Origin: an uncultured Anaerolineales bacterium
Lineage (GTDB): Bacteria; Chloroflexota; Anaerolineae; Anaerolineales; JABWBV01
Direction of reading: 5' to 3'
Assembly (NCBI GenBank): GCA_964489525.1
Contig: CAZAYY010000012.1
Location: forward strand, 65,320 to 129,319
DNA length: 64,000 nt
Shown: in pieces, positions 27,284-52,736 of the stretch
Numbering within the stretch: the stretch's first letter is position 1
How the letters are laid out: every line of letters begins with the position of its first letter
Made by a program: the position numbers and the translations under genes
The notes under the pieces: model-generated
Told to the model about the DNA's origin: nothing
The model's database searches: none
Seen by the model: only the letters and a program-made list of their open reading frames with translations

Positions 27284-29230
27284 ATGACTTCTAACCGGAA
27301 AATTGGACGCTATGAGGTCACAGGTGAGTTGGGCCGGGGCGGTATGGCCACGGTCTTTCAAGCCTTTGATCCGCAGTTTAAAAGAGATGTGGCGATTAAG
27401 GTGTTGCCCCGCGAATTTCTCCATCAGGAATTGTTCCGGGTTCGTTTTCTTCAAGAAGCCACCACAGTAGCCTCCCTGGAACACCCTTCTATCGTACCTG
27501 TGTATGACTTTGGGGATGATGCCGGGCAGCCCTACCTTGTGATGCGCTTTATGAAAGGGGGGCAGTTGGGCGACCGGATCCGCAAAGGACGCATGAACAT
27601 TGTAGAAACCGCCCAAATTATCGGGCAGCTTGCTCCCGCGTTGGATTATGCCCACCAACGCGGCATTGTCCATCGCGACCTTAAGCCCGACAACATCATG
27701 TTCGACGAACACGGGCAGGCCTACCTGACCGATTTTGGCATCGCCAAGCTCACAGAATCCACCGGAACCTTAACCGGGGACGCCATCATTGGCACGCCGG
27801 CCTACATGAGTCCCGAACAAGCCCGCGGCGATGAAGACATTGACGGCCGCAGCGATATTTATTCCATGGGCGTGATTGTCTTTGAAATGTTGGCTGGTGT
27901 GGTTCCCTACCAGGCCACCTCCCCGATGGGGCAGGCCGTCAAACATATCACCGATCCCGTTCCAAACATTCAGGAAGCAGCAGGCGATTTACCCTACGCC
28001 CTACAAGTCATCATCGAGAAGGTGATGAGCAAAAACAAACACCTGCGTTTCCAAACCGCCCGTGAGTTTGCCAACGCACTGAGGTTGGTGGCTGGTGGTG
28101 AAATGCCCGATTCGATCACCGACGTGGTTAAACCCACCATGGCAAAAATGATGCGGGATGAAGTTGCCTCCATCGAAGGCTCCCGGCCAACCCAACCCGG
28201 CACGCCCATAAACCCCACAGCAGAACAAAGCCAGGCCGCCCCAACCGCCCGGGCGGGCCGCAATAATTTGTTGCTTTATGGCGGTCTGGCCGCCATCGGT
28301 TTGGTGGTTGTACTGGTGCTCGCCTTTGTGTTAGGGCGGGGCAGTTCTGCTGCGCAAAGCCCAACCGATATTCCCCCTACCCAGGTTGAAGTGAATACGG
28401 CAGCCACCCAGGAAGCCCAACTTCAGCAGACACAAACGGTTCTGGCCCTGGAATTGGAAGCAACCCGCACATCCGCAACCGCCGAGGCGCTGGCGGCCCT
28501 GGCCACCCAATCGGCCCAACCCACCCCTGAACCGACTCCAACCAGCATCCCTGAAACCGAGGAGCCAGGCCCAACCGCCAGCAATTCCAACATTCGCACC
28601 TCATTCTCGGAAGATGAGGGTTTCTTTAACCTCTTTGACGGAATTCGGATTGAAAACGATGCCCTATTCATGGGACCGTTTGAAAAGTGTGCCCTGGATG
28701 TGGGCCGGGCGTCGGCTGGCTGCCTGGCCGTTTGCACCGCCTGTGGGTTCGCCACCGATTTTTCGATGACTTATGAATCCAGTTTTGTAGACGGTCGTCC
28801 CTGGAAATTGTTCGGGGTTGCCCTGCGCTTCCTGGATGAAGATGAGGACGGCATTATTGACCCCGAAGATTACTTCCTCGGTTGGGCATACAGTGTTGCT
28901 GTTCGCTCGGAATTCCCCGAAGCCCGTTGGACAATGTACGAACACCTGCCAAACGCAACGAACAACCCCTGGGTTTTCCTGGACAGCGAAATTTCAAACC
29001 TGCCCCCAACCCCGCGCCTGCCCAGCCTGATCCGGATTGAAAGCAGTGAAAACGGAAAATATATCGAAATCTACATGAATGACGTGCGCATGATCCGGTT
29101 CACCAATGAAACCCCCAAGCCGGGCGAAAAACTGGTACGAAACATGCCCCAAAGCGGTTTTGTGGGTTTTTGGGTAGTAGAGAAAGAAATAACCGTCAAA
29201 TACGAAAACTTCCGCTTCGAACCGAAATAA
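27284..29230 (+). CDS. Ser/Thr protein kinase with one TM helix and a ConA/DUF1080-like ectodomain
   Basis: Hanks motifs GRGGMATVF, AIK, HRDLKPDN, DFG and GTPAYMSPE. TM helix LLLYGGLAAIGLVVVLVLAFVL. The C-terminal beta-rich domain ends VKYENFRFEPK. Confidence 0.9.
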   Translation: MTSNRKIGRYEVTGELGRGGMATVFQAFDPQFKRDVAIKVLPREFLHQELFRVRFLQEATTVASLEHPSIVPVYDFGDDAGQPYLVMRFMKGGQLGDRIRKGRMNIVETAQIIGQLAPALDYAHQRGIVHRDLKPDNIMFDEHGQAYLTDFGIAKLTESTGTLTGDAIIGTPAYMSPEQARGDEDIDGRSDIYSMGVIVFEMLAGVVPYQATSPMGQAVKHITDPVPNIQEAAGDLPYALQVIIEKVMSKNKHLRFQTAREFANALRLVAGGEMPDSITDVVKPTMAKMMRDEVASIEGSRPTQPGTPINPTAEQSQAAPTARAGRNNLLLYGGLAAIGLVVVLVLAFVLGRGSSAAQSPTDIPPTQVEVNTAATQEAQLQQTQTVLALELEATRTSATAEALAALATQSAQPTPEPTPTSIPETEEPGPTASNSNIRTSFSEDEGFFNLFDGIRIENDALFMGPFEKCALDVGRASAGCLAVCTACGFATDFSMTYESSFVDGRPWKLFGVALRFLDEDEDGIIDPEDYFLGWAYSVAVRSEFPEARWTMYEHLPNATNNPWVFLDSEISNLPPTPRLPSLIRIESSENGKYIEIYMNDVRMIRFTNETPKPGEKLVRNMPQSGFVGFWVVEKEITVKYENFRFEPK

Positions 29231-37206: not shown

Positions 37207-38451
37207 TTAAGGCGGGCAGGAACCCTCTCCAGGGCAAGCCAGCAGCCATTGACTTTCAAAATCGCTCTCGGCTGTCCAGCCTGTGATGGCCAGGCTGGGG
37301 ACATTCACCTCCCAAAAAACCAGGCCATCCGTACACACAGGGCCTTTGAGCAGTTCCACCACGGTACCAGGGCCTAGAGTAGCGCGCACATCCGTACCCA
37401 CCCCCGCCCCATTGCGCAAACGGTTGCTGGTGGGGGGGTTGGGGTTAACATAAGCCCGTCCGCCCTGCTGCAGCAGGCTCAGGCAAGCGGGGGTCAGTTC
37501 TGGTGAGCCAGTTACGCGCAGGGACATGACCAACGCATCCAGGGTTTCCAGGCTGGGGTTAAAACTGGCTGCGGGCTGGTTTTCGAGCCGGATTTTGATG
37601 GCTTCCAGGTATCTTTCGTAGGCAGCAGGGAAATTGGTGGAACTGTAATCAGGGAAAGGCTCTCCACCGGGGGGGATGGCGGTGTCGGCACTGCGGGCAG
37701 GGAGAATTGCTGAATGAATCGGCAGGATAACAGCAACATAATACGCCCCATCGGCTGTAAGTCCCTGGTATGTATAAAAAAGCGAATGGTTGTTAAGTTG
37801 GCCGGCATCCTGGCCGAATTGGGTCAGATAGCGAATTCCACTGCCATTTTGAAAATTGAGAAAAACCAGGTTGCTGTGAAATACCTGGGCGGCGTTAAAT
37901 ACGGGCAGAAAAGGCAGGGGGCTGCTGGCTGCAGCGCCATCCAACAAACCTCTTAATTGGTTCTCCTGATTGGCCGCACCGGGGTTATATCGGCCTATGG
38001 CTGCCAGCGGATACACAAAAACCACCGGGCTGTGCAGGGTATCTTGCAAAGGGTATCCTTCCAGGGCATACTGCAGGTGGGCGGGCATCACTTCCCAGGG
38101 AGGGCTGCTGCCCCCAGGGGCTACTGCGGGAACGAATAACGCCTCTACCCCCACAGCGAGGCTGGCTGGTAAAACCAGCTGGATTTCATCCGCAAAAAAT
38201 GAAAGGGATTCCGATGTGGGCAGCGGGGAAAGGGTGGCTGTTGGTTCAACACCCGGGTTGGTGGGGGTGGGCAGCACAGGTGAAGGGGGCGGCGTGGGGC
38301 TGACGGGGGCCACCAGAGTAGCAGCCGCTGCCAGGGTAGCCGTAGGCGAGCCAACTGGCTGTTGAACCAGGCTGCGCGCCAGGTTGCAGCCCAGGCTCAT
38401 CAGGATGAGAAACAAAATCCACAGAAAAGGTTTTCTTCGAGTTAATCGCAT
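37207..38451 (-). CDS. Secreted lipoprotein with Pro/Thr-rich linker and C-terminal SH3b-like domain
   Basis: Start at MRLTRRK (38451). Lipobox LGC. The C-terminal ~70 aa (RLRNGAGVGTDVRATLGPGTVVELL...GLVFWEV...GWTAES) resemble a bacterial SH3 domain. Last gene of the cytochrome cluster. Confidence 0.55.
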   Translation of the reverse strand: MRLTRRKPFLWILFLILMSLGCNLARSLVQQPVGSPTATLAAAATLVAPVSPTPPPSPVLPTPTNPGVEPTATLSPLPTSESLSFFADEIQLVLPASLAVGVEALFVPAVAPGGSSPPWEVMPAHLQYALEGYPLQDTLHSPVVFVYPLAAIGRYNPGAANQENQLRGLLDGAAASSPLPFLPVFNAAQVFHSNLVFLNFQNGSGIRYLTQFGQDAGQLNNHSLFYTYQGLTADGAYYVAVILPIHSAILPARSADTAIPPGGEPFPDYSSTNFPAAYERYLEAIKIRLENQPAASFNPSLETLDALVMSLRVTGSPELTPACLSLLQQGGRAYVNPNPPTSNRLRNGAGVGTDVRATLGPGTVVELLKGPVCTDGLVFWEVNVPSLAITGWTAESDFESQWLLACPGEGSCPP

Positions 38452-38566
38452 GCCGATTATTTTATCAAAAAAGTTCAGTACCACCCAAAAAGGCGGGGTG
38501 TTTGCGAGGAGGGCAGCTCGCAAACACCCCATAAAAAACAGGCAGAGAAATCAGCCCGGCTGGTGG

Positions 38567-40675
38567 TCAGGGTGCGGTTGTGGGCAGGAGAATCGTCCAG
38601 CTATCGGTTGTGTGACAGTTAGAACATTGTCCACGTGCATGACCGAGCGGCCGGTCTTTGGCATGGCAAGATTTACAATCGTTATATCCATCGTGATTAA
38701 AATCAACATCAGCCCAATCGGTAAAGTTGTGACACCCGGAACACTGCCCGGGCCAATGGCCCGTTGGCGCTGGATGGCAGTAAATGCAGTTATCTGTTAA
38801 CGAGTGTTTGTAATAGGCGGGTGTCCAGGTAATCGTATTATGACAAAGCGAACACTGAAGGGTGTAATGTTCAGGGGATGTGGCATGGCAGGACAGACAA
38901 TTGGTGCTGACCAGTGAATGGTCAAATACCCACTCTCGCCAATCCTGGGTGTTGTGGCATTTGATACAAATGGTTTGAGAATAATGCATCAGCGGAACCA
39001 CATGGCAGCTTGTGCAAGGGTAGGCCATGTTGGTGTGGCTGTAGTTGGAGTTCGTCCAAGTGGTCATCGCATGGCACGAGCTGCATTCGCCGGGGTAGTG
39101 ATTGGTTGGCTGCTCGCGGAGATGGCAGTTGGAACAAGAATTCAAGGGGTTGTGCTGATAAAGATTTTTCTTCCAATTGTTCAGGTTGTGGCAGTCGGTA
39201 CACAAGCCTGGGTAGTGTTCTTCAGGCGTGGTGTGGCACTGCAGGCAGTTGGTGGACTTGTGATAAAACGGTTCCTCCCAGCTTGTGGTACTGTGGCAAA
39301 GGTCGCAGTTGGGGTTGTAATGGTCTGCGATCGTTTCATGGCAGGTTATGCAGCGTTGGCTTTTGACTTCATGGAAATCTTTGTTGGTTTTCCAGGTGTT
39401 TGTCAGGTGACAATTGGTGCAGCTGCCCAGGTAGTCGTGGTTTGTATTGGGTTCGGTGTGACAGCGCACACAGGATGTGCGGGTATACAATTGGTGGGCA
39501 AACTGGTAAACATTCCAATCGGTTTCGCTTGTATGACAATCCACGCAGGCGCCCTTGGTATAGTGGTTGGCGGGTGTGTCGGGGGTATGACAGGTTTCAC
39601 AGGTATATTCCCCAACATGGACATATTCAATGACCGTCCAGTCTTCCATATCCTGGTGGCAGTTCTGGCAAAAGCCCGGGTTGTGTTCGGGCGGTTCGGC
39701 ATCGGCGTGGCAGCTTTCACAGCGCTCGCCTTCGGTATGTTCAAAAATGGTGAGAGACCAATCTTCGGTGTCTTCGTGGCAGCGTTTACACTCCCCTGGA
39801 TAGTGGGCAGAATCCCCTTGGGGCAAGGTGAAAATTTCTTCTGTGTAACCCACGGAATAAACCGCTTCGGTGAGCATGGTAATCGCATGGCAGGATTGGC
39901 ATTCAAAGACGCCCACGTGGTCAAAAGCAGTTGGTGTCCAGTCCAGGGTGTTATGGCAGTTTTCACAGGCACCAGCAAAGTGGTTGGTATAAATAGAAGC
40001 ACTGGCAAGCAAATCAATGGTGTGGCATTGGGCACAAATCCGGGTGGTGCCTGCATACAGCCCGTTGACATGGCAGTCCTCGCAATTGCCTGAATGACCG
40101 CCTTCCATTGAAAAATTGCTGTGGTCCACATCTGAATCGAGATAGGAAACCGCGACCGGGTTAACGCTCACCACAGAAGGCAGAAGCTGCACCTTGGGCG
40201 TCTCGGCTTTAGGCTCCGGGGTGTTAAGCATGGCGGAAACAAAGGCAAAGAGCGGCGCCGCTGCAGGCTCATTTTCTTTTAGATCGAGTGATTTTACAAC
40301 CACAATGGTTTTGCGAGCCAGGCTTTCAAACTCTGGCTGGAAGCCAGAAACGGATTGGGCTGGAATGGCGTTTTGCTGAACCACCAATACATCCAGTGCA
40401 TCCGCCAAAAACCCCACCGCAAGAGACACCTCCTCAGGGTTTTGCGCACCCGCCAGGTCCACCAGGCGCCGTTCTGCAAGCTGGCAGGCATAAGCGGTCT
40501 TTTCTTCTGGACCCTGGGTCAACTGCATCCGCCAGCTTTCTGCTAGGTGTTGGGATTGAAACCAGGGTTGTTCAAGACAGCTAAAAGGCTCTACCTCGGC
40601 CAGGTAAAAAAGCCCGAGGCCCGCCATGACCAATAAACAGGTTAGCGATAATAATAGGATGACGAGCTTTTTCAT
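38567..40675 (-). CDS. Membrane-anchored multihaem c-type cytochrome, 25 CxxCH motifs
   Basis: N-terminal signal anchor, then a ~190-aa haem-free domain. That is followed by 25 CxxCH motifs, mostly as repeated two-haem modules CxxCH-x(6-8)-H(Y/W)-x(2-4)-CxxCH-x3-W. Confidence 0.9.
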   Translation of the reverse strand: MKKLVILLLSLTCLLVMAGLGLFYLAEVEPFSCLEQPWFQSQHLAESWRMQLTQGPEEKTAYACQLAERRLVDLAGAQNPEEVSLAVGFLADALDVLVVQQNAIPAQSVSGFQPEFESLARKTIVVVKSLDLKENEPAAAPLFAFVSAMLNTPEPKAETPKVQLLPSVVSVNPVAVSYLDSDVDHSNFSMEGGHSGNCEDCHVNGLYAGTTRICAQCHTIDLLASASIYTNHFAGACENCHNTLDWTPTAFDHVGVFECQSCHAITMLTEAVYSVGYTEEIFTLPQGDSAHYPGECKRCHEDTEDWSLTIFEHTEGERCESCHADAEPPEHNPGFCQNCHQDMEDWTVIEYVHVGEYTCETCHTPDTPANHYTKGACVDCHTSETDWNVYQFAHQLYTRTSCVRCHTEPNTNHDYLGSCTNCHLTNTWKTNKDFHEVKSQRCITCHETIADHYNPNCDLCHSTTSWEEPFYHKSTNCLQCHTTPEEHYPGLCTDCHNLNNWKKNLYQHNPLNSCSNCHLREQPTNHYPGECSSCHAMTTWTNSNYSHTNMAYPCTSCHVVPLMHYSQTICIKCHNTQDWREWVFDHSLVSTNCLSCHATSPEHYTLQCSLCHNTITWTPAYYKHSLTDNCIYCHPAPTGHWPGQCSGCHNFTDWADVDFNHDGYNDCKSCHAKDRPLGHARGQCSNCHTTDSWTILLPTTAP

Positions 40676-40715: not shown

Positions 40716-41732
40716 TTAGCGGCCCGATTGCACGGCTGTCTTTAACGCTGCTGCCTCCCCCGCTGCACCTGTGGGATGGCAGGAAGCGCAGTCACTCAAA
40801 TCACCATACTCACCTACGGCAAAGTGTTCTGCAATGGTTTCAACGGGCTGGTGATCGTGGCACCCGTAACAGGTAATTTCGGTGTAGTACTGCTGATGGC
40901 AGGTTTCACAGGCCACCACATCATCACTGCCATGACGAATGTCAAATGTGTGCAGCAGCAGATAGGCTGGCTTCCAGGCCGTTGTTGTGTGGCAGCGGTT
41001 GCAGGCAGCGCCAAACATGACCTTGTCTTTTTCGGCAATGTGGCAATCGGAACAAACCTGGCTGGTGCCCTGGAACACCTGGTTCTGGTGACAGCTGGCA
41101 CACTCCGCTCCGGCATGGGCCCCATCCAGGACATAGGTATCATGGGCAAATTCTGCCATGTTGGCTGTGCCATCATGACAGGCCAGGCAATTCACGCCAT
41201 AGAAATCCATGTGGGCAGAAGTAAAGTCATGATCCATCTCGACATGGCAGGTGACACAATCGGTAGAACCTTCGGCGAAATTCCCCTGCGTATGGCAGTC
41301 TTCACAGGTCATCAGCGAGTTATCCACGCGCAGGTTATGTTTTTCAAGCGAAAAACCTCCCAACTCCTGGTGATTGATGTTGACAAACGGCACATAGCTG
41401 ATGTTGGCATCGGTACCCTGGTGTTCAGTATGGCACGTCTGGCATTTGTAAGTACCAGGCAGTTTGCTGTGCAATCCATCCTGTTCCATTCGCTCTCGGG
41501 CAATTTCCAGGTGGCAGTTCTGGCAGCGATCATCACTGATACAGTGAATGGGAACATGGCAGTGCCCACATTCGTGTTTGAAGGCTTCGTGGTTTGGATA
41601 CCCCCCCAACATCGCTCCTGTCGCCTGGGCTGTGGACAAATTTCCCACCATCCGGTACTTCACGCTTTCAAAGGTGAGAAAACCGGCGGAGAAAACCACC
41701 ATCAGGGCAATAATTTTTATAAATCCTTTCAC
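40716..41732 (-). CDS. Membrane-anchored multihaem c-type cytochrome, 12 CxxCH motifs
   Basis: N-terminal TM helix and 12 CxxCH motifs. The C-terminal 4-haem block is paralogous to the C-terminus of the 6-haem protein. Confidence 0.9.
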   Translation of the reverse strand: MKGFIKIIALMVVFSAGFLTFESVKYRMVGNLSTAQATGAMLGGYPNHEAFKHECGHCHVPIHCISDDRCQNCHLEIARERMEQDGLHSKLPGTYKCQTCHTEHQGTDANISYVPFVNINHQELGGFSLEKHNLRVDNSLMTCEDCHTQGNFAEGSTDCVTCHVEMDHDFTSAHMDFYGVNCLACHDGTANMAEFAHDTYVLDGAHAGAECASCHQNQVFQGTSQVCSDCHIAEKDKVMFGAACNRCHTTTAWKPAYLLLHTFDIRHGSDDVVACETCHQQYYTEITCYGCHDHQPVETIAEHFAVGEYGDLSDCASCHPTGAAGEAAALKTAVQSGR

Positions 41733-41787: not shown

Positions 41788-42609
41788 TCATCGCGTTCCT
41801 TTCTGCGCGGGCGGGGCCACCAGTTCCCAATCCCCGGGTTCTCCTGTCAGATGGCAGCTTGTGCAGGCCTTGATGTCGTAGATGTTGGCCTTCAAATGCA
41901 CCGCTAACATGGCATCGGGTTGGTGGTCGTGGCATCCAAAACAAGTGTGCGTATCATACGAATCAATGTGGCAAGAAACACACTGCTGCGTTGTATCTGA
42001 ACCGTGATCCAGGTGAAAAGTGTGGCGGGTGAGTAAGGCTGGTTTCCAGGCTTGGAGCGTGTGGCAGCGCACACAATCCAACCCAAAACGGTCTTTGTGA
42101 ACCTCGGGCTGCTCATGGCAAGCCGAGCAGCGGTGGGGGTCATCCACCACAACATTTAAGAACTCTTCTTCAAGGGCCATTTCAACCAGGGCATACGCTT
42201 CCACTTGACGCTCGCCAGCCAGGGCTTCGACCAGATTCCAGTTCACATTTTGAATGAAAGTAACCAACTGTTCAATTTGTAGGTCACTCAAAATGCCGCC
42301 CTTGTTGGTGTGCCAGGCAGCCATAACCGAGCCATGCGCAGAACGGGCAATAATCTGAAAAAGAGCGTCCGGGTCGGCATCCGCAAGGTAAGGGGAGTTA
42401 AGCGGCGGCATATCCCCAATCCCCTCGCCATACAGCCCGTGGCAAGACACGCAGTTATCCATATACACCACAGCCGCCTCAGCAATATGCTGTTTGCGCA
42501 CTTCTTCCATGGCAATGGCAATCCGTTGGCCTTCTTGCAAGGCATACAAAGGCAGCAAAATGAGGAATCCAAGCAGTCCGAGTGCTGTAATCCAGGAATA
42601 TCGGTTCAT
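41788..42609 (-). CDS. Membrane-anchored c-type cytochrome: class-I monohaem domain fused to a 5-haem module (6 CxxCH)
   Basis: TM helix. CVSCHGLYGEG...M class-I-like domain. Then CSACH, CVRCH, CVSCH, CFGCH and CTSCH. Confidence 0.9.
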   Translation of the reverse strand: MNRYSWITALGLLGFLILLPLYALQEGQRIAIAMEEVRKQHIAEAAVVYMDNCVSCHGLYGEGIGDMPPLNSPYLADADPDALFQIIARSAHGSVMAAWHTNKGGILSDLQIEQLVTFIQNVNWNLVEALAGERQVEAYALVEMALEEEFLNVVVDDPHRCSACHEQPEVHKDRFGLDCVRCHTLQAWKPALLTRHTFHLDHGSDTTQQCVSCHIDSYDTHTCFGCHDHQPDAMLAVHLKANIYDIKACTSCHLTGEPGDWELVAPPAQKGTR

Positions 42610-42618
42610 GGCACCCTC

Positions 42619-43185
42619 CTACCCATACACCAACTGGTCGGGCGAGAAGTGGTCGCGCCGCCGTAAGTAAGAAGTATCGACATACACTTTGCCGCTGTCA
42701 ATTTTGACGGTGTATAAATCTAAGGCCCGGTGAAGGGTAGTTTTTTCTGAATTTCCGTAAAAATCAAAAGCCGAAGCGTGGCAAGGGCAAAGGAATTTGC
42801 CTTCATCGGAAGAATAATTAACTGTGCAGCCCAGGTGGGGGCAGCGGCGGTAGACGGCCATAAACCCGCCATCCGCCGCCCGCACCAAGTAAAAACCTGC
42901 TACTGGAAAATCGGTCACCGAACCAGGGCTAAAGCTATCCACAGTCCCAACGTCCACCTGCCGGGCAACCCGGCTTTCTCCGGTTTGCGGTTTGAGATAC
43001 ATCAGGCCAATGCCGATGAGTTCAACAGCAGCCGCAACACCCGCCAGTTTCAAAAATTCTTTGCGGTTAATGCGCAGCTTCTTCCGAGGTTCTGAAATCG
43101 GGTGGGATACCATAGCTTCCAAACCCTGGATTTCTTCAGGGTCCATATCGGTTGTTGGGGTAGGTTTACTGTTAAGCGTTTGCAT
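42619..43185 (-). CDS. Rieske [2Fe-2S] subunit of a cytochrome bc-type complex
   Basis: AGGAGG RBS. Tat-like NRKEFLKLAG plus a TM helix. Cluster boxes CPHLGC and CPCHAS. Confidence 0.9.
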   Translation of the reverse strand: MQTLNSKPTPTTDMDPEEIQGLEAMVSHPISEPRKKLRINRKEFLKLAGVAAAVELIGIGLMYLKPQTGESRVARQVDVGTVDSFSPGSVTDFPVAGFYLVRAADGGFMAVYRRCPHLGCTVNYSSDEGKFLCPCHASAFDFYGNSEKTTLHRALDLYTVKIDSGKVYVDTSYLRRRDHFSPDQLVYG

Positions 43186-43202: not shown

Positions 43203-44558
43203 TTAAGAAAATGGCAGGATAAGAGCCATATTCGCGCCTCGGAAGAAGACGCCAATGATGGTCAGCGCCACCAGGCTGGAAAACTCGAACATAAATAAAC
43301 CCAACAATGCTTCCGAGCGGTTTGCCCGTAAAAGCCTGAATAAACCATAAACCAGGGCCAGCAGCAAAACCGCGACCGCAAATGGAATCACTCCATTCGC
43401 AACCAGGGGATTCAGGGTTGGGAATAGTTCCGGAATTTCGAGCCAGTATTCATCGGCAATCACCAGCAAGGGAATCAGGTTGAAGGCCAGCAGCGCGCCC
43501 AGGGCAAAAGTCCACCTGCCGGTTTTTGACCGGAAATAGATACCAGTGCTTTGATCCTGTCGATCGTAATAAGGAAGCAGTACTGCCATCAAGGTCACCA
43601 AAATCACCAGTGCCATGGCTGCTCGAGCATCCATATGCAGCAGCAGTTCTTGAAGTCCCATGAAATACCAGGCAGCTTTGGCCGGGTTTGGAGAAGAAAG
43701 GGGGTCGGCAACAGCCAACAACGGGGCTGGAAACTGCGTTCCGATTAAGAAAACCCCAAAAGCCACCAGAACCATAATCCCCAGCTCTTTCTGAACCAGG
43801 TTTGGAATGGTGGTTACCTGTTCGGTGATTTCGCCTGGCTTTGAAGGGGGGTGGCTGATTCCACCCGATTTGCGAATTTTCCAAAAGTGGTAGCTCATCG
43901 TTGCCACCAACAAAACTGGCAGCACAGCCACATGAATCGCATAAAAATTCCGCAAGGCCGCCTGGCCAAGATCCGGCCCGCCCAACAAAAAATGAGACAG
44001 AGAATCTCCAGCGAATGGAATGTACTGAACCAGGCTGGCCGCAACAGTTACCGCCCAATACGAAAGCTGGTCCCAGGGCAGCAGGTAGCCAGTGAAATTG
44101 AAGCCAAGAACGATGAACAGCAAAACCATCCCAATCACCCAGTTGAAAGCCCGTTCTTTAACATGGCTGCCCGTCAAAAAGACCCGCAGCAAATGGAGCA
44201 CCACCACAAACACCAGGATGTTTGCAGACCAATGGTGAATGGCGCGAATCAGCGAGCCAAACATCACCTGTGATTCAATCATCTGGATGCTCTGGTAAGC
44301 CCGATCCACACTGGCATCATAGCGGAACATGAGCAAAACCCCGGTAGAAATCAGGACAAGTGTCAGAAAGGTGGCAATCCCACCCAGACCCCAGGTATAG
44401 GTAAAACGCAAAGCCGGGACTGGGACGCGGGTGGGGTGCAGATGTAAAATGACGTTATTTAGAACTTCTCGCAAGCGGCTGCGTTCTTCTTCTGCTGAAA
44501 TGGCAGCCTGGTCTCGCCCAGGAGTACTGGTTTTATTCAAAGGAAGATTGGTATCCAT
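43203..44558 (-). CDS. Cytochrome b (fused b6-like N-domain plus subunit-IV-like C-domain plus extra helices)
   Basis: Helix B H-x13-H (IHHWSANILVFVVVLH) and helix D H-x14-H (IHVAVLPVLLVATMSYH). The Qo-loop region PAKAAWYFMGLQELL sits at the position of the PEWY motif. Confidence 0.9.
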   Translation of the reverse strand: MDTNLPLNKTSTPGRDQAAISAEEERSRLREVLNNVILHLHPTRVPVPALRFTYTWGLGGIATFLTLVLISTGVLLMFRYDASVDRAYQSIQMIESQVMFGSLIRAIHHWSANILVFVVVLHLLRVFLTGSHVKERAFNWVIGMVLLFIVLGFNFTGYLLPWDQLSYWAVTVAASLVQYIPFAGDSLSHFLLGGPDLGQAALRNFYAIHVAVLPVLLVATMSYHFWKIRKSGGISHPPSKPGEITEQVTTIPNLVQKELGIMVLVAFGVFLIGTQFPAPLLAVADPLSSPNPAKAAWYFMGLQELLLHMDARAAMALVILVTLMAVLLPYYDRQDQSTGIYFRSKTGRWTFALGALLAFNLIPLLVIADEYWLEIPELFPTLNPLVANGVIPFAVAVLLLALVYGLFRLLRANRSEALLGLFMFEFSSLVALTIIGVFFRGANMALILPFS

Positions 44559-44570: not shown

Positions 44571-46118
44571 TTATTGGGTAACCAACAAAGGAATAAAAAC
44601 TTTAAAGTTCACTGGTACTTCTGTACCCAAATATAAAAAAGCACTGCCAACCAGGTCAAAATTGACCCGATAAACTGGAGCGCCAACAACCAGGTCGGCA
44701 TGGTTGTCTAGGTCCAGGTCGGTGCCGCCAGAAAACGTAAAACCAAAGGATGCGTCAGCCTTGTTGCCCAGCCCGCGCCAGAGCACACTGACACCCAACC
44801 CACCGGGATAGCCTGCGAAAGCATAGATGGCGCCCTGGTCTGGTTTGTCGCCATCAAACATGGATGCACCCACAAAAACGTCGGGAAAACCATCCTGGTT
44901 GACATCGCCAGCGCTTCCAACAGAACAGCCAAACTGGGAGCCGCCCTGCGGGAAGATGTAACTCCAGACCGGGATGGGGAAAAGTCCATCGCCACTGCCT
45001 AGATAAAAATAAGCGGCGCCCTGGTTCACCAACTGGCTGCTGTGATAGGGCTCACCAATGATTAAGTCCGCATAACCATCCTGGTTGACATCCCCTGCCC
45101 CCGCTAAAGCATAGCCAAACTGAGCTCTATCCTCCTGCCCATAAACAACCTGGGCGGGTGTTTCTGCCAGGCCATTTTCGCCACCCAGGTAAACATAAAC
45201 TGCACCCACCTGAACCGTTTGCGTCACATAATAGGGTGCGGCGATGGCGACATCGGTATAACCATCCTTGTTCAGGTCCCCCACCCCGGCCACCACCATC
45301 CCAAAGTCAGCGCCAGCTTGCCCGCCATACACAACCCAATCCGGCTCAAATGGCAGACCGCTGGCAGAACCATAGTAACCAAAAACTGCGCCTGCTTTAA
45401 GCCCTGAAAGCGGGGACGTAAAATTGGGAGCGCCGATCATCACATCGCCAAAACCATCCTTGTTGACATCACCGGCACTGGCCACAGCATATCCAAATTG
45501 TGCACTTTTGGTGTTGGATTCCACCCGCCAATCCGGGGTGAGTGCAGGCGTTCCAGGTTGGCCGTAGAACAGGTATGCAGCGCCTTCCTCAGCTTCCGGG
45601 TTTGTGGTGCTGGGAGCCCCGATCAGAATATCATCCCGGCCATCCCCGTTAACATCCTGCACAATCGCCAGGCTGCTGCCATAGCGCGAGCCCTGCTGCT
45701 CGCCAGCCGTTTGCCAGGAAGCCGCGTTTCCCGGACCGGAAGGGCCGCTCAGGTATAGGAAAGCCCGGCCTTCGCGGTACACCTGGTCGGTCATTTTCGC
45801 GGCACCCACCAGTAAATCGGCCCGGCCATCACCGTTCACATCGCCTGTGATGCTGACTGCGCTGCCAAATTCATCGCCATTGCTCTCGCCGCTTTGCGAC
45901 CAAACGGGGGTCAGGGAAAAGCCCGCCAGGGTTTGGTTTTGAGACAGGGAAAGGCTTGCGCTTTCAGGAGCAGCGCCCGCCAGGGAAGGGTGAGAAAACC
46001 CGAACGCCAAAAGCACAACCAGGCTCAGCCAGACCCAGGCGGTTGGGCGGGAATGGGTATTTTGGGAAGGGGTTAAGGGGGTTGGGTTCATCAGGTTGTG
46101 CTTTTGGCTGTCTTGCAA
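44571..46118 (-). CDS. Secreted FG-GAP (integrin-alpha-like) beta-propeller repeat protein
   Basis: Signal peptide. About 7 repeats of FG..V...GDVNxDGxxDxxxGAP. Only 12 nt upstream of cytochrome b. C-terminal tail NFKVFIPLLVTQ. Confidence 0.85.
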   Translation of the reverse strand: MQDSQKHNLMNPTPLTPSQNTHSRPTAWVWLSLVVLLAFGFSHPSLAGAAPESASLSLSQNQTLAGFSLTPVWSQSGESNGDEFGSAVSITGDVNGDGRADLLVGAAKMTDQVYREGRAFLYLSGPSGPGNAASWQTAGEQQGSRYGSSLAIVQDVNGDGRDDILIGAPSTTNPEAEEGAAYLFYGQPGTPALTPDWRVESNTKSAQFGYAVASAGDVNKDGFGDVMIGAPNFTSPLSGLKAGAVFGYYGSASGLPFEPDWVVYGGQAGADFGMVVAGVGDLNKDGYTDVAIAAPYYVTQTVQVGAVYVYLGGENGLAETPAQVVYGQEDRAQFGYALAGAGDVNQDGYADLIIGEPYHSSQLVNQGAAYFYLGSGDGLFPIPVWSYIFPQGGSQFGCSVGSAGDVNQDGFPDVFVGASMFDGDKPDQGAIYAFAGYPGGLGVSVLWRGLGNKADASFGFTFSGGTDLDLDNHADLVVGAPVYRVNFDLVGSAFLYLGTEVPVNFKVFIPLLVTQ

Positions 46119-46194: not shown

Positions 46195-49100
46195 TTACCG
46201 GGTGAAGGGCAGGTATACCCTGTAAAGCGTGTCTGCCACCAGCAAAGGCTGCCAGGCATCCACAGACCAGTTGCCCTTAGCATCTTTCGCCCGGAATTTG
46301 ATGATGTGCAAGCCTGGGCTGAGGCCCCACTGGTTGGGGTTCATGGCAAAACCAGGCTGGTTGCTCATAAGCCCGTCATGGGAGGAAGTCCACTCGTATT
46401 CCACAATGCCGCCACTCAGCTGGTCACAATCCTTGGCAAAGCCCTGGAAATAGACCAGGTCGGTCGTGGCAAGTTCTATGGAAGTTGGAGCAACCACAAT
46501 CCGGGCGGTGGGTACAATCTCGATGGCTTCGTTGTAATATACCCGGCGGTACCACATGTCGCTGTTGGTCACCACTTCTTCGGCGTCTTCATTCCATTGG
46601 TTCCAAACCGCATAGAAGAATGTGCCGCCCGGGTTGGCCACCAGCGCCGCCTCTCCAGAAAGATCGTCCTGGTTGTTTTCAAGCCAGTCAAAGGATTCGC
46701 GATAAACGCCGTTGGCATCTGGAATGTCTGCAAGCACAATGTCATCATAGTTGTCGCCCCAGTCGGAAGCCCGGCTGTAATACAGGTTCAACGGGGTGGC
46801 TTCGCCAAGGGTAACCGTGGTATTGTCGCCGGTTTCATACACCACGAAGAACTTGCTGGGGTCTCGCTCATCATCGGTATAGCGATACTCCGTCTTCAAC
46901 GTATCCGAGAAAATTGCCGGAGCGGTGGGGCTGTAGCGGGGATCCAGGATGGTGATCTTGGTGCCAATAAGCTGTGAAACGTTGCGGGCGGGTTCAAAAG
47001 CGCCTACCCCATAGCAGGTTTCTACCGACAGTTCACTTTCGCCATCAGGGATATCCAGGTAGTTTTCAACGTGGCACGGGCCGATATCGTCTCCCAGCCC
47101 AAGTGGGGTGGTTGTCCAGGTCTGCCCGCCGTCGAAGGAGCGGCGAATGTACAGGTTGTATTTGTCATTTCCAACCGAGTTAGCCATCCAGTTGGGCGAC
47201 CAGGCGTAAAGCACCATGACAAAATCACCATCAATGAAACCACGGTGGCCTTTGGCAATGTCGTAGGGGTTTTCCCAGGTCTGGTCATCCAGGTTTTCTG
47301 CTGTCTGGTCCCAAACGGTCACCTTCGGGAAGGGGGATACGCCGCCATCCCACGGGAAGGCTTGAATGCATTGAGCCGGGTCGGTGCCATCTCCACCCGC
47401 TGGCAGGTTGGTACAGCGCTCAATGCTGGTTCCAGACAGGTTGGTGGGTGTCGAAAGGCAGATGCCACCGGGGTAGTTCGGGTTGATTGCTGCATGGACG
47501 GTTTCGGTGGTGTAGCGGGTATCGGTGATCGGCACATAGTCCCAGATATCACAGGCCATGTTCTCAAAAGCAAAGGGGTTATCGAGCATGGGGTCAAATT
47601 CATCTGGAATGACCAGCCGGCGCATGTAGATATCGGCCGGGCCGCCCTGGTTAATGATGCCCTGCTTGTAGAGCAAGATTGCCGAGGTTTTTTCCACTGA
47701 GTTCAACGTGGCTTTTCCAGATTGGACAATCAGGCTGAAACGCCGGGCAATTTCGGTTTCGTAAAATGCGTTGCCCCAGTCATCCAACTGAAGCTCAAAG
47801 AAATCTCCTGTTTCTGGGTCGGAAGAAGGTTGGTTGAGGATATGGCCTCGGCTGACCAGGTCGGGTTGGAACATGTCGAAGCTGTGGTACCAGATATTCT
47901 TACCGATATCAATGGGTTCCACTTCCAACTCGCTCGATCCTTCACCTAATGCTTTGGTTTCTTCGTAGGCAATCAGCACCCAGGCGCTGGTTCGGGTGTC
48001 GTAGATGGGTTCGGTAATCTCGACGGTATAGGTGATGCCTGAGGTATCGGTGAGAGTAACGGTCTGGGTGATTTCGCCAATGATGGTGTCATAATCATAG
48101 GTGGTGTACCCTTGCAAGCCAATCCGGGGTCGCGAAGCGCCCACCCGCCCTACCAGGGTGCGGCCATCTTCCGTCACGCAAACATTCTTGGGCTGGCCGC
48201 CGGGGTTAAGCCACTCTACTGTGGATGCACAGTACTCAAGAATTCCATCTCCGTTGAAGTCGTGGTGGCAATAGGGGTCTTCGGTCAAAGAGGTGGCATC
48301 ACAAAAGTCGTTGTCGGTCAGGCGAACCGGAACTTCCATGAGCACACCCACTTTGGGCAGGGTTCCTTCCGGATCATAAACATATTCAATCGGGTCGGGG
48401 ATGTTTTCCAGGTTCTCGGTGGTCGGGTCGTCCACCAGGGCAAAATCATCCCAACCAATATAACTGTACCAGACATCGGTTTTGGCGTTGACAATCGCAC
48501 CGCTCCAACCCTCGCCTGGGCCAAGGCCCTGGCCGGGCCGCAGGCCTTCGGGGTCTTCCTGCCAGGTGACAATAAAGCCAGCGCCTTCCACGCCTTTAAC
48601 TTCAATCCGGTGTGCATCCCGGCGTCCAGAGGTCAGGCGTTCGGCTTTGCGCCAAATCATGTCATAATAGGAGGTGCCATCTTCCCGGGTGATTTGCTCC
48701 AAGGTGCCTCGGGCTACCCAAACACAGCCATAAGGGATTTCGCCTATTTCAGGAAAGCCCTGTAGGGTGTAATCTACTGATTTTTGGGTACCCATCACGC
48801 CAAACAGATCTTTTTCCGGATAGATGGTATAGGCGGGCAGGCCGCCATCACAGTAGCGGCTGATCCAGGCCACCATCGCGTACCGCCCGGTAATGGCGAA
48901 TTCACGCGAAACGCCCAGTTCCAGGTAGAAAACATCACCGGGGTAGGGTATGCCATCCACGGTGAATGAGCTCAGATGGGCTGAATCTGACAGGTTGTAG
49001 TTCTTCCAGGTGGCGCCATCGTCCAGCGAGAGAGCGGCAAAGGCATCCCGTGCACCAAAACCAAGGCCGCTGCGCACTTCTTCCTCGTGTTCAATACCAT

Positions 49101-49386
49101 CAATGTATGCGCTCAATAAAGGCCGGGCATAGTCGCGGGTTTCAATCACCGTTTCTGTGTCGGAAAGCAAGACGGTGTACTCAATGGTGGTCAGGCTGCC
49201 ATCGGCTTTTTGGGCTGGGACATAAAAGTTCATCATACCCACAGCGGCTTCCTCGGTTTCACCGTCGGGTGTTCTGGAGACGTTTCTGCGAAACATCACG
49301 CCATCATCACCCAGGGCTGAACCGGTGACAAGGCCGAGGGCCAGGACAACCATGAGCACTGCAAATAATACGGTTTTCGGTTTCAT
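46195..49386 (-). CDS. Large secreted protein with BNR/Asp-box motifs and a C-terminal Ig/PKD-like domain
   Basis: Signal peptide. Two Asp-boxes (SLDDGATW, SFDGGQTW). C-terminal beta-sandwich-like region. Tail YRVYLPFTR. No further family recognised. Confidence 0.7.
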   Translation of the reverse strand: MKPKTVLFAVLMVVLALGLVTGSALGDDGVMFRRNVSRTPDGETEEAAVGMMNFYVPAQKADGSLTTIEYTVLLSDTETVIETRDYARPLLSAYIDGIEHEEEVRSGLGFGARDAFAALSLDDGATWKNYNLSDSAHLSSFTVDGIPYPGDVFYLELGVSREFAITGRYAMVAWISRYCDGGLPAYTIYPEKDLFGVMGTQKSVDYTLQGFPEIGEIPYGCVWVARGTLEQITREDGTSYYDMIWRKAERLTSGRRDAHRIEVKGVEGAGFIVTWQEDPEGLRPGQGLGPGEGWSGAIVNAKTDVWYSYIGWDDFALVDDPTTENLENIPDPIEYVYDPEGTLPKVGVLMEVPVRLTDNDFCDATSLTEDPYCHHDFNGDGILEYCASTVEWLNPGGQPKNVCVTEDGRTLVGRVGASRPRIGLQGYTTYDYDTIIGEITQTVTLTDTSGITYTVEITEPIYDTRTSAWVLIAYEETKALGEGSSELEVEPIDIGKNIWYHSFDMFQPDLVSRGHILNQPSSDPETGDFFELQLDDWGNAFYETEIARRFSLIVQSGKATLNSVEKTSAILLYKQGIINQGGPADIYMRRLVIPDEFDPMLDNPFAFENMACDIWDYVPITDTRYTTETVHAAINPNYPGGICLSTPTNLSGTSIERCTNLPAGGDGTDPAQCIQAFPWDGGVSPFPKVTVWDQTAENLDDQTWENPYDIAKGHRGFIDGDFVMVLYAWSPNWMANSVGNDKYNLYIRRSFDGGQTWTTTPLGLGDDIGPCHVENYLDIPDGESELSVETCYGVGAFEPARNVSQLIGTKITILDPRYSPTAPAIFSDTLKTEYRYTDDERDPSKFFVVYETGDNTTVTLGEATPLNLYYSRASDWGDNYDDIVLADIPDANGVYRESFDWLENNQDDLSGEAALVANPGGTFFYAVWNQWNEDAEEVVTNSDMWYRRVYYNEAIEIVPTARIVVAPTSIELATTDLVYFQGFAKDCDQLSGGIVEYEWTSSHDGLMSNQPGFAMNPNQWGLSPGLHIIKFRAKDAKGNWSVDAWQPLLVADTLYRVYLPFTR

Positions 49387-49805: not shown

Positions 49806-52736
49806 ATGGAGCGGATCGTGATCAACCTGTTGGGTTCGTTTAACGTCCTGGCAGGCGGCCAAAAAATCAACGACGATTTTCGAACCAGCAAAGAGCGTGC
49901 CTTACTGGCTTATCTGGTTGTTGAGCACCAGCAGGTTCACTTACGAGATGCTTTGGCCGAAATGTTCTGGCCAGGCAAGCCGCCCGGAAGCGCCCGTACC
50001 AATTTACGACAGGCTCTGACGGGTATCCGCCAGGTTTTGACGCAGGGGTTGAACAACCTGGACAACCATCTGATTGTGAACAATGAGAGTGTGCAGCTGC
50101 ACCTGGGGGGGCAGATCCAGGTAGATGCACTCACGTTTGCCGGGCAAATTCATCATGCAGGTCATCATACCCACCTGGAGTTAAGCCAATGCCCAAAATG
50201 CCTGGCCGAGTTAGAAGAGGCCGTGGCTGCATACCAGGGAAATTTTCTTGAATCCTTTTTCCTGCCAGACAGCATTACATTTCAAGAATGGATTACCTAT
50301 CAACGCGAGTATTACAACCGCCAGCTTGGCTCTGCCCTCTGGATGTTAATAAGTGCCCACAAAAAGCGTGTGGATTTTGAGCGGGTCGAGCAGTATGCAG
50401 CCCAAATGAACCGCTTTTTCCCCCTGGAAGAATTTGGCTACCGCGAACTGATGGAAGTGTATGCGGCCACAGGAAGAAGGAACGCCGCCCTGGAAAAATT
50501 TTCTGAATGCGCAAACCTGATGCAGCGTGAATTGGGCATTGAACCTTCTGGGGAAACCCAGGCTCTGTACGAAAAAATCAAAAGAAATCCGGACACAAGA
50601 CCCCTGGCGCAAACCAGAGAGCCACCCGCTGCCCGGATTCCCACGGGTGAGTCACCTGTAAAAACGAACCTACAAGCACCCCTGACCAACTTTTTTGGCC
50701 GTCAAAAGGAATTGAACCGGCTTGCCACCTACCTGGAAAGCCCAAACTGCCGGTTGATCACCATTTTAGGGATTTCAGGCGTTGGCAAAACCCGGCTGGC
50801 CCTGGAAGCAGCCCGGAAAAACGGCCATTTGTTTCCTGATGGGGTTTGGATTGTGTTTTCAAACGAACTCCGAAAGTCGCGCTTCCTGGCGGATACCTTG
50901 CTGCAAACCATGGGGGTTTATATTGCAAACCCGAACGATGTCAAAGCTCAGCTGGCCAGGGTGCTGCAAAACCAGCAGGCACTTTTGGTTTTGGATGGGT
51001 TTGAATTGCTTGAAGACCAGATCCAGCTTGTTTTGGATCTGTTGAGCCAGGCACCCAGGTTAAAAATTTTACTCACCTCTCGGGTACACCTGAACACAAA
51101 AGCCGATTACCCGATCATTCTGGGCAGCCTGGATTACCCGCCCCAAACTACTCAATCCAAAACACTCCAAATTAACGATTATCCTGCCCTACAGCTTCTC
51201 CACGACCGGGCATATCCGTTTTTGCTGCCAGAGCAAATTCCCCCTGCTCATATTCAAGAAATGGCAAAAATTTGCCAGGAGGTGGAAGGGCTGCCTTTAG
51301 CCATTGAACTGATTGCCGCCAACCTGGACGAATTCAGCTTTGGCGAAATCCTGGCCATGTTAGCGAACAACCAACTGCAGATCGAAACCCAACAGCTCGA
51401 TTTTCCAGACAAACACCGCAGTCTTGTGGTCGCGCTCAACAGCCTTTGGGAAAGTCTGTGCTCAGAATGCAAACAAAACGCCCCAAAATTGAACGTTTTC
51501 AAAAGCGGGTTCACATCCCAGGCCGCCCAGGCCTTAGGCGTGTCCAACCACACCCTGCAGCACCTGAGCAGTAAGTTCATTTTGCAAAAAGACATTCACC
51601 AGAGGTACCAGTTTCAACCCATGGTTCAGCGGTTAATCGTATCCATGTTCCCGGTCGCAGCCGAACAAGCCGAAAGGCATGCCCGGCATTACCTGGAATA
51701 CCTTCAAAAACACGAAATGGAACTGCTTTTTGGCTACCCAAACAGCCTTACTTACCTGGAAATCAAACAAGATATCGCCAACATTCGCCAGGCCATAGAT
51801 TGGGCCATCCTGAACACGAGGGCCGACCTTTTATCCCCCTCTCTGAACAGTATTTACGCCTACTATGATACCAGCAACCGTTTTCACGAAGGGGAAGGCC
51901 GGTTTGAAAGAATCAGCAAAGCCTTTGAAAGGCTGCCCCTCACTCCTGAAAACCAGCGCAGCCTGGGCATTGCCATGGGCTACCAGGCCTGGTTCAGCGG
52001 GCGCGGTGGTGCGCTGGAAAATGCCCTGGTAATGCTGGCAAGCAGCCTGGCCCTGCTTGAGGAGTTTGGAACCGAGAGCGACAAAACCTTCATCTATGTT
52101 GCCCTCAGCCAGCTGGAGCTGCGATCAGGGCAGTTTGCCTGGGCAAAAGAACATGCTGATCAGGCGAAAGCCCTGGCCATTCACTACTACCAACCACACT
52201 GGCGCTGGCTCAGTGAACTGACCCTGGCGCAAACTGCCCACCTGACCCACGAGAAAGAATCACCGGTCACAATCTACCTGGAGTGCCTTTCCGCATTTAA
52301 GAACTTAGGCTATGGGTTGGGATATATCCGTACCTTGCTGCTGCTTGCCCGGTACAACCTGGCCACAAACCAGGCGGAAATGGCAAAATCGCACCTGATG
52401 CAAGCCTGGGAATACATTAAAAGCCCGCAGGATACCTGGCTTTCAGCCATCCTGGAGTTGGAGTTGGGAAATGTCGAACTGCAGCAGGGGTTCATTGCCC
52501 AAAGCCAGCTTACCTTAGAGAAAAGCTACGCCTATTTTCAAGATGTGGGAGACAAATATCATATCAGCCTGGCTGCCATCAGCCTGGGCAATCTTTGGAC
52601 AAAACAGGGACAACTCGAAAAAGCCGAGATGTACTACCAGGAAGCCCTGGTTGCTGGCAACCAACAACAGCTGGAACCCATTACCCGAGAAGTTGAGCAC
52701 AGGCTGCTGAAATTGAGAGAATCCCCCACCCGATAA
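49806..52736 (+). CDS. SARP/BTAD-family transcriptional regulator fused to NB-ARC (STAND) ATPase and TPR repeats (AfsR-like)
   Basis: N-terminal winged-helix (SKERALLAYLVVE...) plus BTAD (...YRELMEVYAATGRRNAALEKFSECANLMQRELGIEPSGETQALYEKI). P-loop GISGVGKT, Walker B LLVLDGFE, and a TPR-like C-terminal half. Confidence 0.85.
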   Translation: MERIVINLLGSFNVLAGGQKINDDFRTSKERALLAYLVVEHQQVHLRDALAEMFWPGKPPGSARTNLRQALTGIRQVLTQGLNNLDNHLIVNNESVQLHLGGQIQVDALTFAGQIHHAGHHTHLELSQCPKCLAELEEAVAAYQGNFLESFFLPDSITFQEWITYQREYYNRQLGSALWMLISAHKKRVDFERVEQYAAQMNRFFPLEEFGYRELMEVYAATGRRNAALEKFSECANLMQRELGIEPSGETQALYEKIKRNPDTRPLAQTREPPAARIPTGESPVKTNLQAPLTNFFGRQKELNRLATYLESPNCRLITILGISGVGKTRLALEAARKNGHLFPDGVWIVFSNELRKSRFLADTLLQTMGVYIANPNDVKAQLARVLQNQQALLVLDGFELLEDQIQLVLDLLSQAPRLKILLTSRVHLNTKADYPIILGSLDYPPQTTQSKTLQINDYPALQLLHDRAYPFLLPEQIPPAHIQEMAKICQEVEGLPLAIELIAANLDEFSFGEILAMLANNQLQIETQQLDFPDKHRSLVVALNSLWESLCSECKQNAPKLNVFKSGFTSQAAQALGVSNHTLQHLSSKFILQKDIHQRYQFQPMVQRLIVSMFPVAAEQAERHARHYLEYLQKHEMELLFGYPNSLTYLEIKQDIANIRQAIDWAILNTRADLLSPSLNSIYAYYDTSNRFHEGEGRFERISKAFERLPLTPENQRSLGIAMGYQAWFSGRGGALENALVMLASSLALLEEFGTESDKTFIYVALSQLELRSGQFAWAKEHADQAKALAIHYYQPHWRWLSELTLAQTAHLTHEKESPVTIYLECLSAFKNLGYGLGYIRTLLLLARYNLATNQAEMAKSHLMQAWEYIKSPQDTWLSAILELELGNVELQQGFIAQSQLTLEKSYAYFQDVGDKYHISLAAISLGNLWTKQGQLEKAEMYYQEALVAGNQQQLEPITREVEHRLLKLRESPTR

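Follow-up and report, generated by a model that had tools for sequence, protein, structure and literature searches.

A 25-haem cytochrome encoded with a Rieske/cytochrome b complex in Anaerolineae: a candidate membrane-tethered haem chain

How could a bacterium with a thick, monoderm-type envelope connect its quinone pool to redox partners outside the cell? Sediments, aquifers, digesters and anode communities are rich in Anaerolineae, which have repeatedly been suspected of extracellular electron transfer; we know of no molecular route by which they would carry it out. The question is raised by a stretch of 64,000 nucleotides (nt), referred to here as the window, from an uncultured Anaerolineales bacterium (GTDB lineage Bacteria; Chloroflexota; Anaerolineae; Anaerolineales; JABWBV01; GenBank assembly GCA_964489525.1, contig CAZAYY010000012.1, positions 65,320 to 129,319 of the forward strand). 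On its minus strand, at 38567..40675, the window holds a complete open reading frame (ORF; ATG start, stop included) for a 702-residue c-type cytochrome with 25 haem-binding motifs, which closes a gene cluster for a Rieske/cytochrome b (bc-type) complex and two further multihaem cytochromes. What is such a protein for? Is it a wire, a store of charge or an enzyme? Where does it sit, what supplies its electrons and in which direction do they run? The features that can be observed directly, namely motif content, repeat architecture, protein family and synteny, suggest that it is probably an extracytoplasmic, membrane-tethered haem chain, the distal part of a 43-haem relay that would lead from the bc module to external redox partners.

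An earlier note on this DNA, made by a model from the letters of the window, had counted 25 CxxCH motifs in the 702 residues, and the count is borne out: the motifs lie between residues 198 and 684, and 5000 shuffles of the same protein gave a mean of 0.27 motifs and a maximum of 3. A scan of the protein for CxxCK and CxxxCH found neither, and its two C-x15-CH matches come only from CxxCH motifs that lie next to each other, which leaves no genuine CX15CH. Fifty of the 53 cysteines belong to haem motifs and three lie outside them. The 51 histidines divide into 25 within CxxCH, 25 spare ones in the haem region (residues 185-679) and one (H43) in the N-terminal domain. With 25 spare histidines for 25 haems, bis-His ligation of every haem is arithmetically possible, and the proposal of the earlier note that the protein is bis-His ligated throughout holds to that extent; the last module lacks its closing histidine. 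Haem motifs and spare histidines are mostly conserved in 27 orthologues, and spare histidines equal or outnumber the haems in 47 of 52 family members. As to the DNA itself, the plus-strand GC skew rises to +0.18 over positions 38001-40000, across this gene, and long shadow ORFs cover it in other frames (38918-40093 and 39010-39366 on the plus strand, 39403-40131 on the minus strand). Both probably reflect the Cys/His/Thr-rich repetitive coding, and the shadow ORFs are probably not real genes.

How are so many haems arranged along one chain? According to the map of motifs and histidines, a c7-like lead-in with H185 and H194 precedes a single first haem (C198-H202), together forming residues 185-213 (40037..40123, minus strand). 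Haems 2-25 follow as 12 A/B pairs in twelve tandem two-haem modules (residues 214-702; 38570..40036, minus strand), delimited by module alignment and Pfam windows. The module consensus in this protein is CxxCH-x5-7-H(Y/W)-x3-4-CxxCH-x3-4-W-x5-6-H. The spacing from the A haem to the following histidine is 5-7 residues in 10 of the 12 units and is stretched by insertions to 13 and 27 in the first two; H[YW] is present in eight units, a tryptophan stands at +5 or +6 after the B haem in all 12, and the next histidine comes 5-6 residues past it in 11, the exception being the last unit. The chain then ends in a short Pro/Thr tail of nine residues. In most orthologues the C-terminus reads ...CSxCHTTDSW and continues into a Pro/Thr-rich tail, of a kind typical of wall-spanning linkers. 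The regular two-haem unit described in the earlier note is therefore present in that all 12 units can be aligned, but the repeat is looser than was written, as the literal pattern fits one unit only (residues 514-547) and a relaxed form of it eight stretches.

Could this regularity be coincidental, as the earlier note had allowed? Across 56 three-module windows from 28 proteins the orthologues give the consensus DCxxCHxxPxxHYxGxCSxCHxTxxWxxxxFxH, with the C, C, H, H, C, C, H, W and H positions invariant and in register. The unit thus recurs in orthologues as a property of the family and is not coincidental. The same note saw the protein as a product of module amplification. The modular repeat is real, but its amplification is ancient, since the modules are only 25-41% identical pairwise, mostly at ligand positions, and Tandem Repeats Finder detected no tandem repeat in the DNA of the gene. 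A recent amplification was rejected on this last result and because a DNA repeat search of the gene returned only matches of 16-28 nt, at haem codons.

To which class of cytochromes does the protein belong? It scores well above the Pfam gathering cut-off for Cytochrome_C7 (PF14522; 62.8 bits, cut-off 24.8), and above the cut-offs for Cytochrom_c3_2 (PF14537; 53.9 bits, cut-off 25) and Cytochrom_CIII (PF02085; 44.5 bits, cut-off 22.9). By these profile matches it is a member of the class III / c7-c3 multihaem cytochromes and, taken as a single protein, an ordinary though large one. The doubled-CXXCH family Paired_CXXCH_1 (PF09699, about 41 residues) matches 18 of the 56 family windows at E<0.01 (best 2.9e-8), reaches 18.0 bits against a cut-off of 20.6 on a window of the protein itself and has precomputed matches on the relatives P0024 and P0027-P0031; Cytochrome_C7 also matches module windows. 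Among solved structures, a search of the PDB with the single sequence found STC as its best match (2e-5), and one with the family profile found GSU1996 (2.4e-13) and HmcA (5.6e-13), and also a 16-haem cytochrome, OmcA, MtrA, MccA (7.8e-8) and STC. Judged by these matches, the solved relatives are electron-transfer haem chains, none of them close; MtrC/OmcA family scores stay below cut-off.

The presence of MccA in this list brings up another possibility. Could the protein be a catalytic enzyme that resembles the nitrite, hydroxylamine or sulfite reductases (NrfA, HAO or MccA type) and receives its electrons from the bc module? Such a role is essentially excluded. A candidate distal histidine is available for every haem and CxxCK and genuine CX15CH are both absent, which leaves no open or unusual haem site and argues for an electron-transfer protein. 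With about 21 residues for each haem, the haem region does not have the protein mass of a globular enzyme, nor room for an active-site domain. NCBIfam yielded no enzyme family, its sole match being STC (22 bits, cut-off 180).

Two of the solved relatives deserve a closer comparison. GSU1996, the dodecahaem 'nanowire' of Geobacter sulfurreducens (PDB 3ov0), is the best family-profile match and resembles the 25-haem protein in its tandem small c7-type haem modules and in its little protein per haem; the lead-in and first haem align to its residues 205-274 in the profile search. GSU1996, which has been proposed to act as a wire or a capacitor, is soluble and periplasmic and is made of three-haem c7 repeats with one His-Met haem each. 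Here, in contrast, the unit holds two haems, the haems number 25 and the chain is preceded by a predicted membrane anchor and a stalk-like DUF5667 domain. The protein is not a c7 polymer of the GSU1996 type, having a period of two haems and 10 methionines of which none occupies a conserved module position. STC/CctA of Shewanella (PDB 1m1p, 6hr0), a linear bis-His haem chain, is alike in that two consecutive modules align with its four haems and two distal histidines, and the repeat profile is collinear with all four STC haems (hhalign 89.5%, E 2e-6). STC differs in being a 91-residue soluble periplasmic shuttle and in the placement of one distal histidine in the module; with its 702 residues and 25 haems, our protein scores 22.4 bits against the cut-off of 180 for the STC/CctA equivalog (NF047727). 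From the weak homology to STC, GSU1996 and MtrA and the low protein-to-haem ratio we infer a linear haem geometry. Solved haem chains (MtrA, OmcS, GSU1996) advance about 0.8-1 nm per haem, and at this rate 25 haems would span roughly 20-25 nm.

Might such chains join with one another? A self-assembling conductor would form end-to-end filaments like OmcS, OmcE and OmcZ, or bridge septa, and would share electrons along the multicellular Anaerolineae filament. The hosts are filamentous, a neighbouring subunit might in principle provide the closing histidine that the last module lacks, and OmcS (1.7e-4) and OmcZ (5.9e-4) are among the weak profile matches. Yet the likeness to filament cytochromes is limited to the haem motifs, and the protein, with its predicted anchor helix, does not fall within the OmcS/OmcE/OmcZ group. 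Moreover, the spare histidines already balance the haems within one chain, and the anchor and stalk favour a tethered monomer. We regard an assembly of this kind as very unlikely.

Where, then, would a tethered chain be held? Residues 1-27 (MKKLVILLLSLTCLLVMAGLGLFYLAE; 40595..40675, minus strand) form a hydrophobic helix after the initial MKK; it is conserved in orthologues and AlphaFold2 (AF2) models it as a helix at 2-27 with a predicted local distance difference test score (pLDDT) of 90-94. This segment would be a signal anchor, although a signal peptide is conceivable too. It is followed by a domain of the DUF5667 family (PF18915; residues 30-155; 40211..40588, minus strand). The earlier note's description of a haem-free, helical N-terminal region proved right: residues 1-184 hold no haem motif and AF2 places helices at 39-151 with pLDDT of about 90. 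The family assignment comes through orthologues, as four orthologous N-terminal domains score 29.6-32.1 bits against a cut-off of 27, whereas that of the query reaches 14.5; the domains are homologous to one another (phmmer E down to 8e-24). The same domain is found in 101 of 262 family proteins fetched, with the first haem near residue 190-250.

Is this domain a dock for the bc complex, as the earlier note had suggested? The distribution of the domain goes against it. DUF5667 also occurs in an anti-sigma-like protein of the window (379 residues, 44.7 bits; 53244-54383, minus strand), which makes the family of this domain a generic extracytoplasmic module in this genome. It is also kept in paralogues that stand beside redox modules other than bc or without bc genes (loci L088, L089 and L006) and is hence not bc-specific. 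It appears instead to be an anchor or stalk of a generic kind. At L089 the DUF5667 long cytochrome lies beside a b-type Ni_hydr_CYTB cytochrome and a 9-haem protein; at L088 it lies beside a Fer4 protein, a FAD (flavin adenine dinucleotide) oxidoreductase and a 12-haem homologue of the dodecahaem cytochrome of the window (31% identity, E 8e-51). Distant paralogues placed beside these other membrane redox modules fit the idea of a reusable output wire. The constant companion of the long cytochrome at L088 and L006 is a mid-size cytochrome (12-haem or a related 8-haem protein), and a contact between the 25-haem protein and the mid-size subunit is possible on this pattern of co-occurrence. The gene of the anti-sigma-like protein overlaps by 4 nt an extracytoplasmic-function-type sigma-70 gene (54380-55084, minus strand), and the two resemble an anti-sigma/sigma pair.

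What would supply the chain with electrons? The genes of the cluster share the minus strand and are spaced 9-76 nt apart; in order, they encode the choice-of-anchor O protein, the FG-GAP protein, cytochrome b, the Rieske protein and the 6-haem, 12-haem and 25-haem cytochromes. The cytochrome b (43203..44558, minus strand; Pfam Cytochrome_B 155 bits) has a b6-like part fused to a subunit-IV-like part, is ExtP/ExtQ-like and matches cytochrome b6 in the PDB at E 1e-45. Its gene is 17 nt from that of the Rieske [2Fe-2S] subunit (42619..43185, minus strand; Pfam Rieske 37 bits, CPH...CPCH motifs), and the pair has the features of a bc-type complex. The hexahaem cytochrome (41788..42609, minus strand; 273 residues, 6 CxxCH) combines a class-I monohaem domain (residues 42-122, Pfam Cytochrome_CBB3/Cytochrom_C) with a pentahaem C-terminal module; its last 112 residues show 46% identity with the C-terminal part of the dodecahaem cytochrome (40716..41732, minus strand; 338 residues, 12 CxxCH), which starts with a hydrophobic segment. 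This pentahaem 'cap', W-KPA..HTF..HG..CxxCH..CxGCHDH..CxxCH, closes the 6-haem and 12-haem proteins (41788-42270 and 40716-41054, minus strand) as well as distant DUF5667 cytochromes (C-termini of P0024 and P0027-P0029); the 25-haem protein of the window and its close orthologues lack it.

The two genes at the head of the cluster encode a 1063-residue 'choice-of-anchor O' surface-type protein (46195..49386, minus strand; NCBIfam NF040591, 705 bits), for which no Pfam or PDB relative was found, and an FG-GAP repeat protein (44571..46118, minus strand; Pfam FG-GAP 184 bits), the first or second gene of the cluster. A BTAD/NB-ARC/TPR regulator identified by Pfam (49806..52736, plus strand) diverges from the cluster, and a homologous regulator lies upstream in eight long-cytochrome loci. 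On the other side, 34 nt downstream of the 25-haem gene, a 441-residue ORF (37207-38532, minus strand) begins with a hydrophobic segment and contains a stretch rich in Pro/Thr. Neither Pfam nor NCBIfam matches it, and none of the 87 related loci has a homologue; on these results it was rejected as a part of the system and is probably unrelated. Other signalling genes of the window encode a truncated kinase and a NACHT protein (61544-63985, minus strand) and a Ser/Thr kinase (27284-29230, plus strand).

Is this cluster a variant of a known conduit? The ext cluster of Geobacter sulfurreducens (extHIJKLMNOPQS, PMC5877670) also places cytochrome b genes beside multihaem cytochromes. The window cytochrome b has its best NCBIfam matches in ExtP (259 bits, cut-off 290) and ExtQ (51 bits, cut-off 150), below both equivalog cut-offs. 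The ext genes include one for an outer-membrane porin (ExtI) and others for small cytochromes, in contrast to cytochromes of 6, 12 and 25 haems in the window. No porin family was matched among the cluster genes in Pfam and NCBIfam scans, to which no dedicated beta-barrel predictor was added. The adjacent porin gene that marks porin-cytochrome conduits (MtrCAB, Pcc, Ext) is thus absent from these family scans.

Is the arrangement peculiar to one genome? The cytochrome b sequence was searched in 185,579 species-representative genomes, and ORFs and haems were censused in 80 loci. Two operon types emerged. Most loci encode cytochrome b, Rieske protein and a 3-haem cytochrome c; 13 of the 80 encode cytochrome b, Rieske protein, 6-haem and 12-haem cytochromes and a DUF5667 long cytochrome (counting the variants L015, L023 and L035), and the version with a long multihaem cytochrome is called type B here. 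The order cytochrome b-Rieske-6-haem-12-haem-long recurs at L001, L005, L007, L012, L019, L024, L027, L028, L031-L034 and L036, the same gene order being found on three metagenome contigs (L001, L005, L007), and the operon is conserved in at least 16 Anaerolineae genomes. Among 87 loci, the FG-GAP protein has homologues in 16 (15 type B) and the choice-of-anchor O protein in 15 (14 type B). The loci concerned are L007, L012, L015, L023, L027, L028 and L031-L036, whereas most 3-haem bc loci have neither. The closest cytochrome b relatives (54-60% identity) belong to Promineifilaceae, Ardenticatenaceae and other Anaerolineae metagenome-assembled genomes (MAGs). In a neighbour-joining tree of 83 cytochrome b sequences, built without bootstrap, Anaerolineae fall into two major clades, and the long-cytochrome operons are all in one. 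At least one MAG, D1.bin.20.strict (JBNKZT01), carries a second bc locus (L016) besides its long-cytochrome operon (L012), in agreement with the Anaerolineae genome RBG-9, for which two PetAB complexes and a 24-haem protein have been described (Hug et al. 2013, PMC3971608).

Which part of the operon is free to vary? The counts of 6 and 12 haems are fixed in the 12 loci with both genes intact and in the window; the last protein alone varies, with 22, 23, 25, 27 or 38 haems. At four loci a second tandem DUF5667 long cytochrome of 24-26 haems follows a first one of 22 haems (L007, 12395-14623; L028, 16541-18634; L031, 16442-18670; L034, 16581-18788); these belong to one Anaerolineaceae-type clade and reach 62-66 haems per cluster. 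The wider family shows the same freedom. A word-indexed search found 280 relatives of the 25-haem protein, and an exhaustive HMMER search yielded 1680 (E<=1e-3), or 178 under the stricter limit of E<=1e-30. Members in which 19 or more motifs are present carry 19-33 haems, mostly 22, 23 or 25, and 38 at locus L023; module number, for which the earlier note had proposed to compare the haem counts of orthologues, does vary. A search of the species-representative genomes with the 25-haem protein alone returned only distant relatives, and one with the relative P0006 for a cultured host gave MAGs only.

Such haem numbers invite a further explanation. Do the 25 haems, or 43 with the partners, mainly store charge outside the membrane so that respiration can go on when an acceptor is transiently absent? 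Dense multihaem cytochromes (MHCs) have been proposed to act as capacitors (PMC7399161), and both the very high haem density and the tandem paralogues, with the totals they bring to a cluster, would suit such a role. It leaves unexplained the strict 6-12-long order, the anchor and stalk, the Pro/Thr tails and the co-conserved surface-type proteins. Storage as the main function therefore appears improbable, although storage and conduction are compatible and not mutually exclusive.

How would a tethered relay work? In the mechanism we propose, menaquinol would reduce the Rieske cluster, which would pass the electrons to the class-I haem of the 6-haem cytochrome and on, haem by haem, through the pentahaem module and the dodecahaem protein into the 25-haem chain. 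Starting at the membrane, this chain would cross the thick monoderm-type envelope and reach acceptors on the cell surface or outside it. Candidate acceptors are metal oxides, humics, electrodes and partner cells, and the same chain could run in reverse. A more far-reaching and quite tentative version takes the operon as one supercomplex, in which a Rieske/cytochrome b quinol oxidase would be hard-wired through 43 haems (6+12+25), or as many as 66 with a duplicated long cytochrome, to the exterior of the monoderm filament, with the FG-GAP and choice-of-anchor O proteins as its outer end.

Several points weigh against this outward relay. The chief one is thermodynamic. Bis-His haems of the c3/c7 type usually have low potentials, and a Rieske/cytochrome b complex normally passes electrons to acceptors more positive than quinol; forward flow through such haems placed after the Rieske protein would thus need either haem potentials that are unusual for the type or a final acceptor of high potential. 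At locus L006 the long cytochrome has no adjacent bc genes, and the 8-haem relative of the dodecahaem protein is present. The PDB matches are driven largely by the CxxCH/His pattern, with per-domain E-values of 1e-6 to 1e-2. The full-length AF2 model, made with 27 orthologues, has pLDDT of 40-60 in the haem domain, and Foldseek against the PDB found for it only generic helical bundles that match the N-terminal domain (best E 0.1). An AF2 model of a 6-haem fragment made with 56 paralogous windows reached a pLDDT of 72 and had no Foldseek matches in the PDB; jackhmmer, used for a deeper alignment of the fragment, split the repeats and left 4 usable matches. The models contain no haems, and their fold comparison is uninformative on the haem domain. 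The linear wire of the earlier note accordingly stands as a modular electron-transfer cytochrome with elongated haem-chain relatives, and its linearity is a matter of homology and protein economy, on which AF2 and Foldseek were uninformative. Finally, Ardenticatena maritima, the only electroactive Chloroflexota isolate that our literature search found, has at most a 7-haem protein (PMC5808234) and hence does not use the long-cytochrome system.

Could the electrons run inward instead? The chain would then take them from Fe(II), reduced humics, cathodes or partner cells, and the bc complex would work in reverse to reduce quinone, or an oxidase would be reached via the hexahaem protein. The architecture is symmetrical for direction. 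In lithotrophic Fe(II) oxidisers, bc complexes do run in reverse. A. maritima, a presumed monoderm relative within the Chloroflexota, performs cathodic as well as anodic electron transfer (PMC5808234). Against this, neither a Cyc2-type nor another known Fe(II) oxidase was found among the cluster genes scanned, and low-potential bis-His haems are better as electron donors than as acceptors from Fe(II). The sequence itself sets no direction, and we hold uptake to be a possible but doubtful main function.

The outward relay has a conceptual precedent. The multihaem cytochromes of Thermincola, a monoderm metal reducer, carry about 6-10 haems and are not known to be encoded with a Rieske/cytochrome b complex. 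The idea of a cytochrome relay that leads from the membrane across a thick wall to external acceptors is shared with the cell-wall cytochromes of Thermincola potens (Carlson et al. 2012, as cited in PMC5808234), a likeness of concept. Within the Chloroflexi supergroup, Anaerolineae hold most of the proteins with at least 20 haems (West-Roberts et al., bioRxiv 10.1101/2021.08.23.457424), and the haem number of large MHCs from Anaerolineales differs between relatives, seemingly in steps of two (Arbour et al. 2020, PMC7399161, Fig. 5). The surveyed proteins share with ours the phylogenetic group, the size class of at least 20 haems, the pairwise variation and a proposed role in extracellular electron transfer. 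The surveys (PMC7399161; bioRxiv 10.1101/2021.08.23.457424; PMC3971608) do not contain the DUF5667 anchor, the two-haem module or the bc-6-haem-12-haem operon, a comparison made at the level of architecture. Our literature search likewise found no description of a fixed bc-6-haem-12-haem-long-cytochrome operon with two surface-type proteins, or of the DUF5667-anchored architecture; the repeat unit and the N-terminal domain are both already catalogued in Pfam.

What does the locus mean for the Anaerolineae? It offers a conserved candidate, a fixed-order cluster that joins a proton-motive quinol oxidase of well-understood type with a relay of haems ending in an element of variable length. If the proposed role is correct, bc-type complexes would be coupled to the export or import of electrons across a monoderm-type envelope; if the supercomplex version also holds, this would be a bc-dependent form of extracellular or filament-wide electron transfer, distinct from the systems of Geobacter, Shewanella and Thermincola. 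The long cytochromes would then provide a natural series of wires, from 22 to 38 haems, in which haem number could be related to envelope thickness, and the operon would serve as a marker for predicting electroactivity in Chloroflexota metagenomes.

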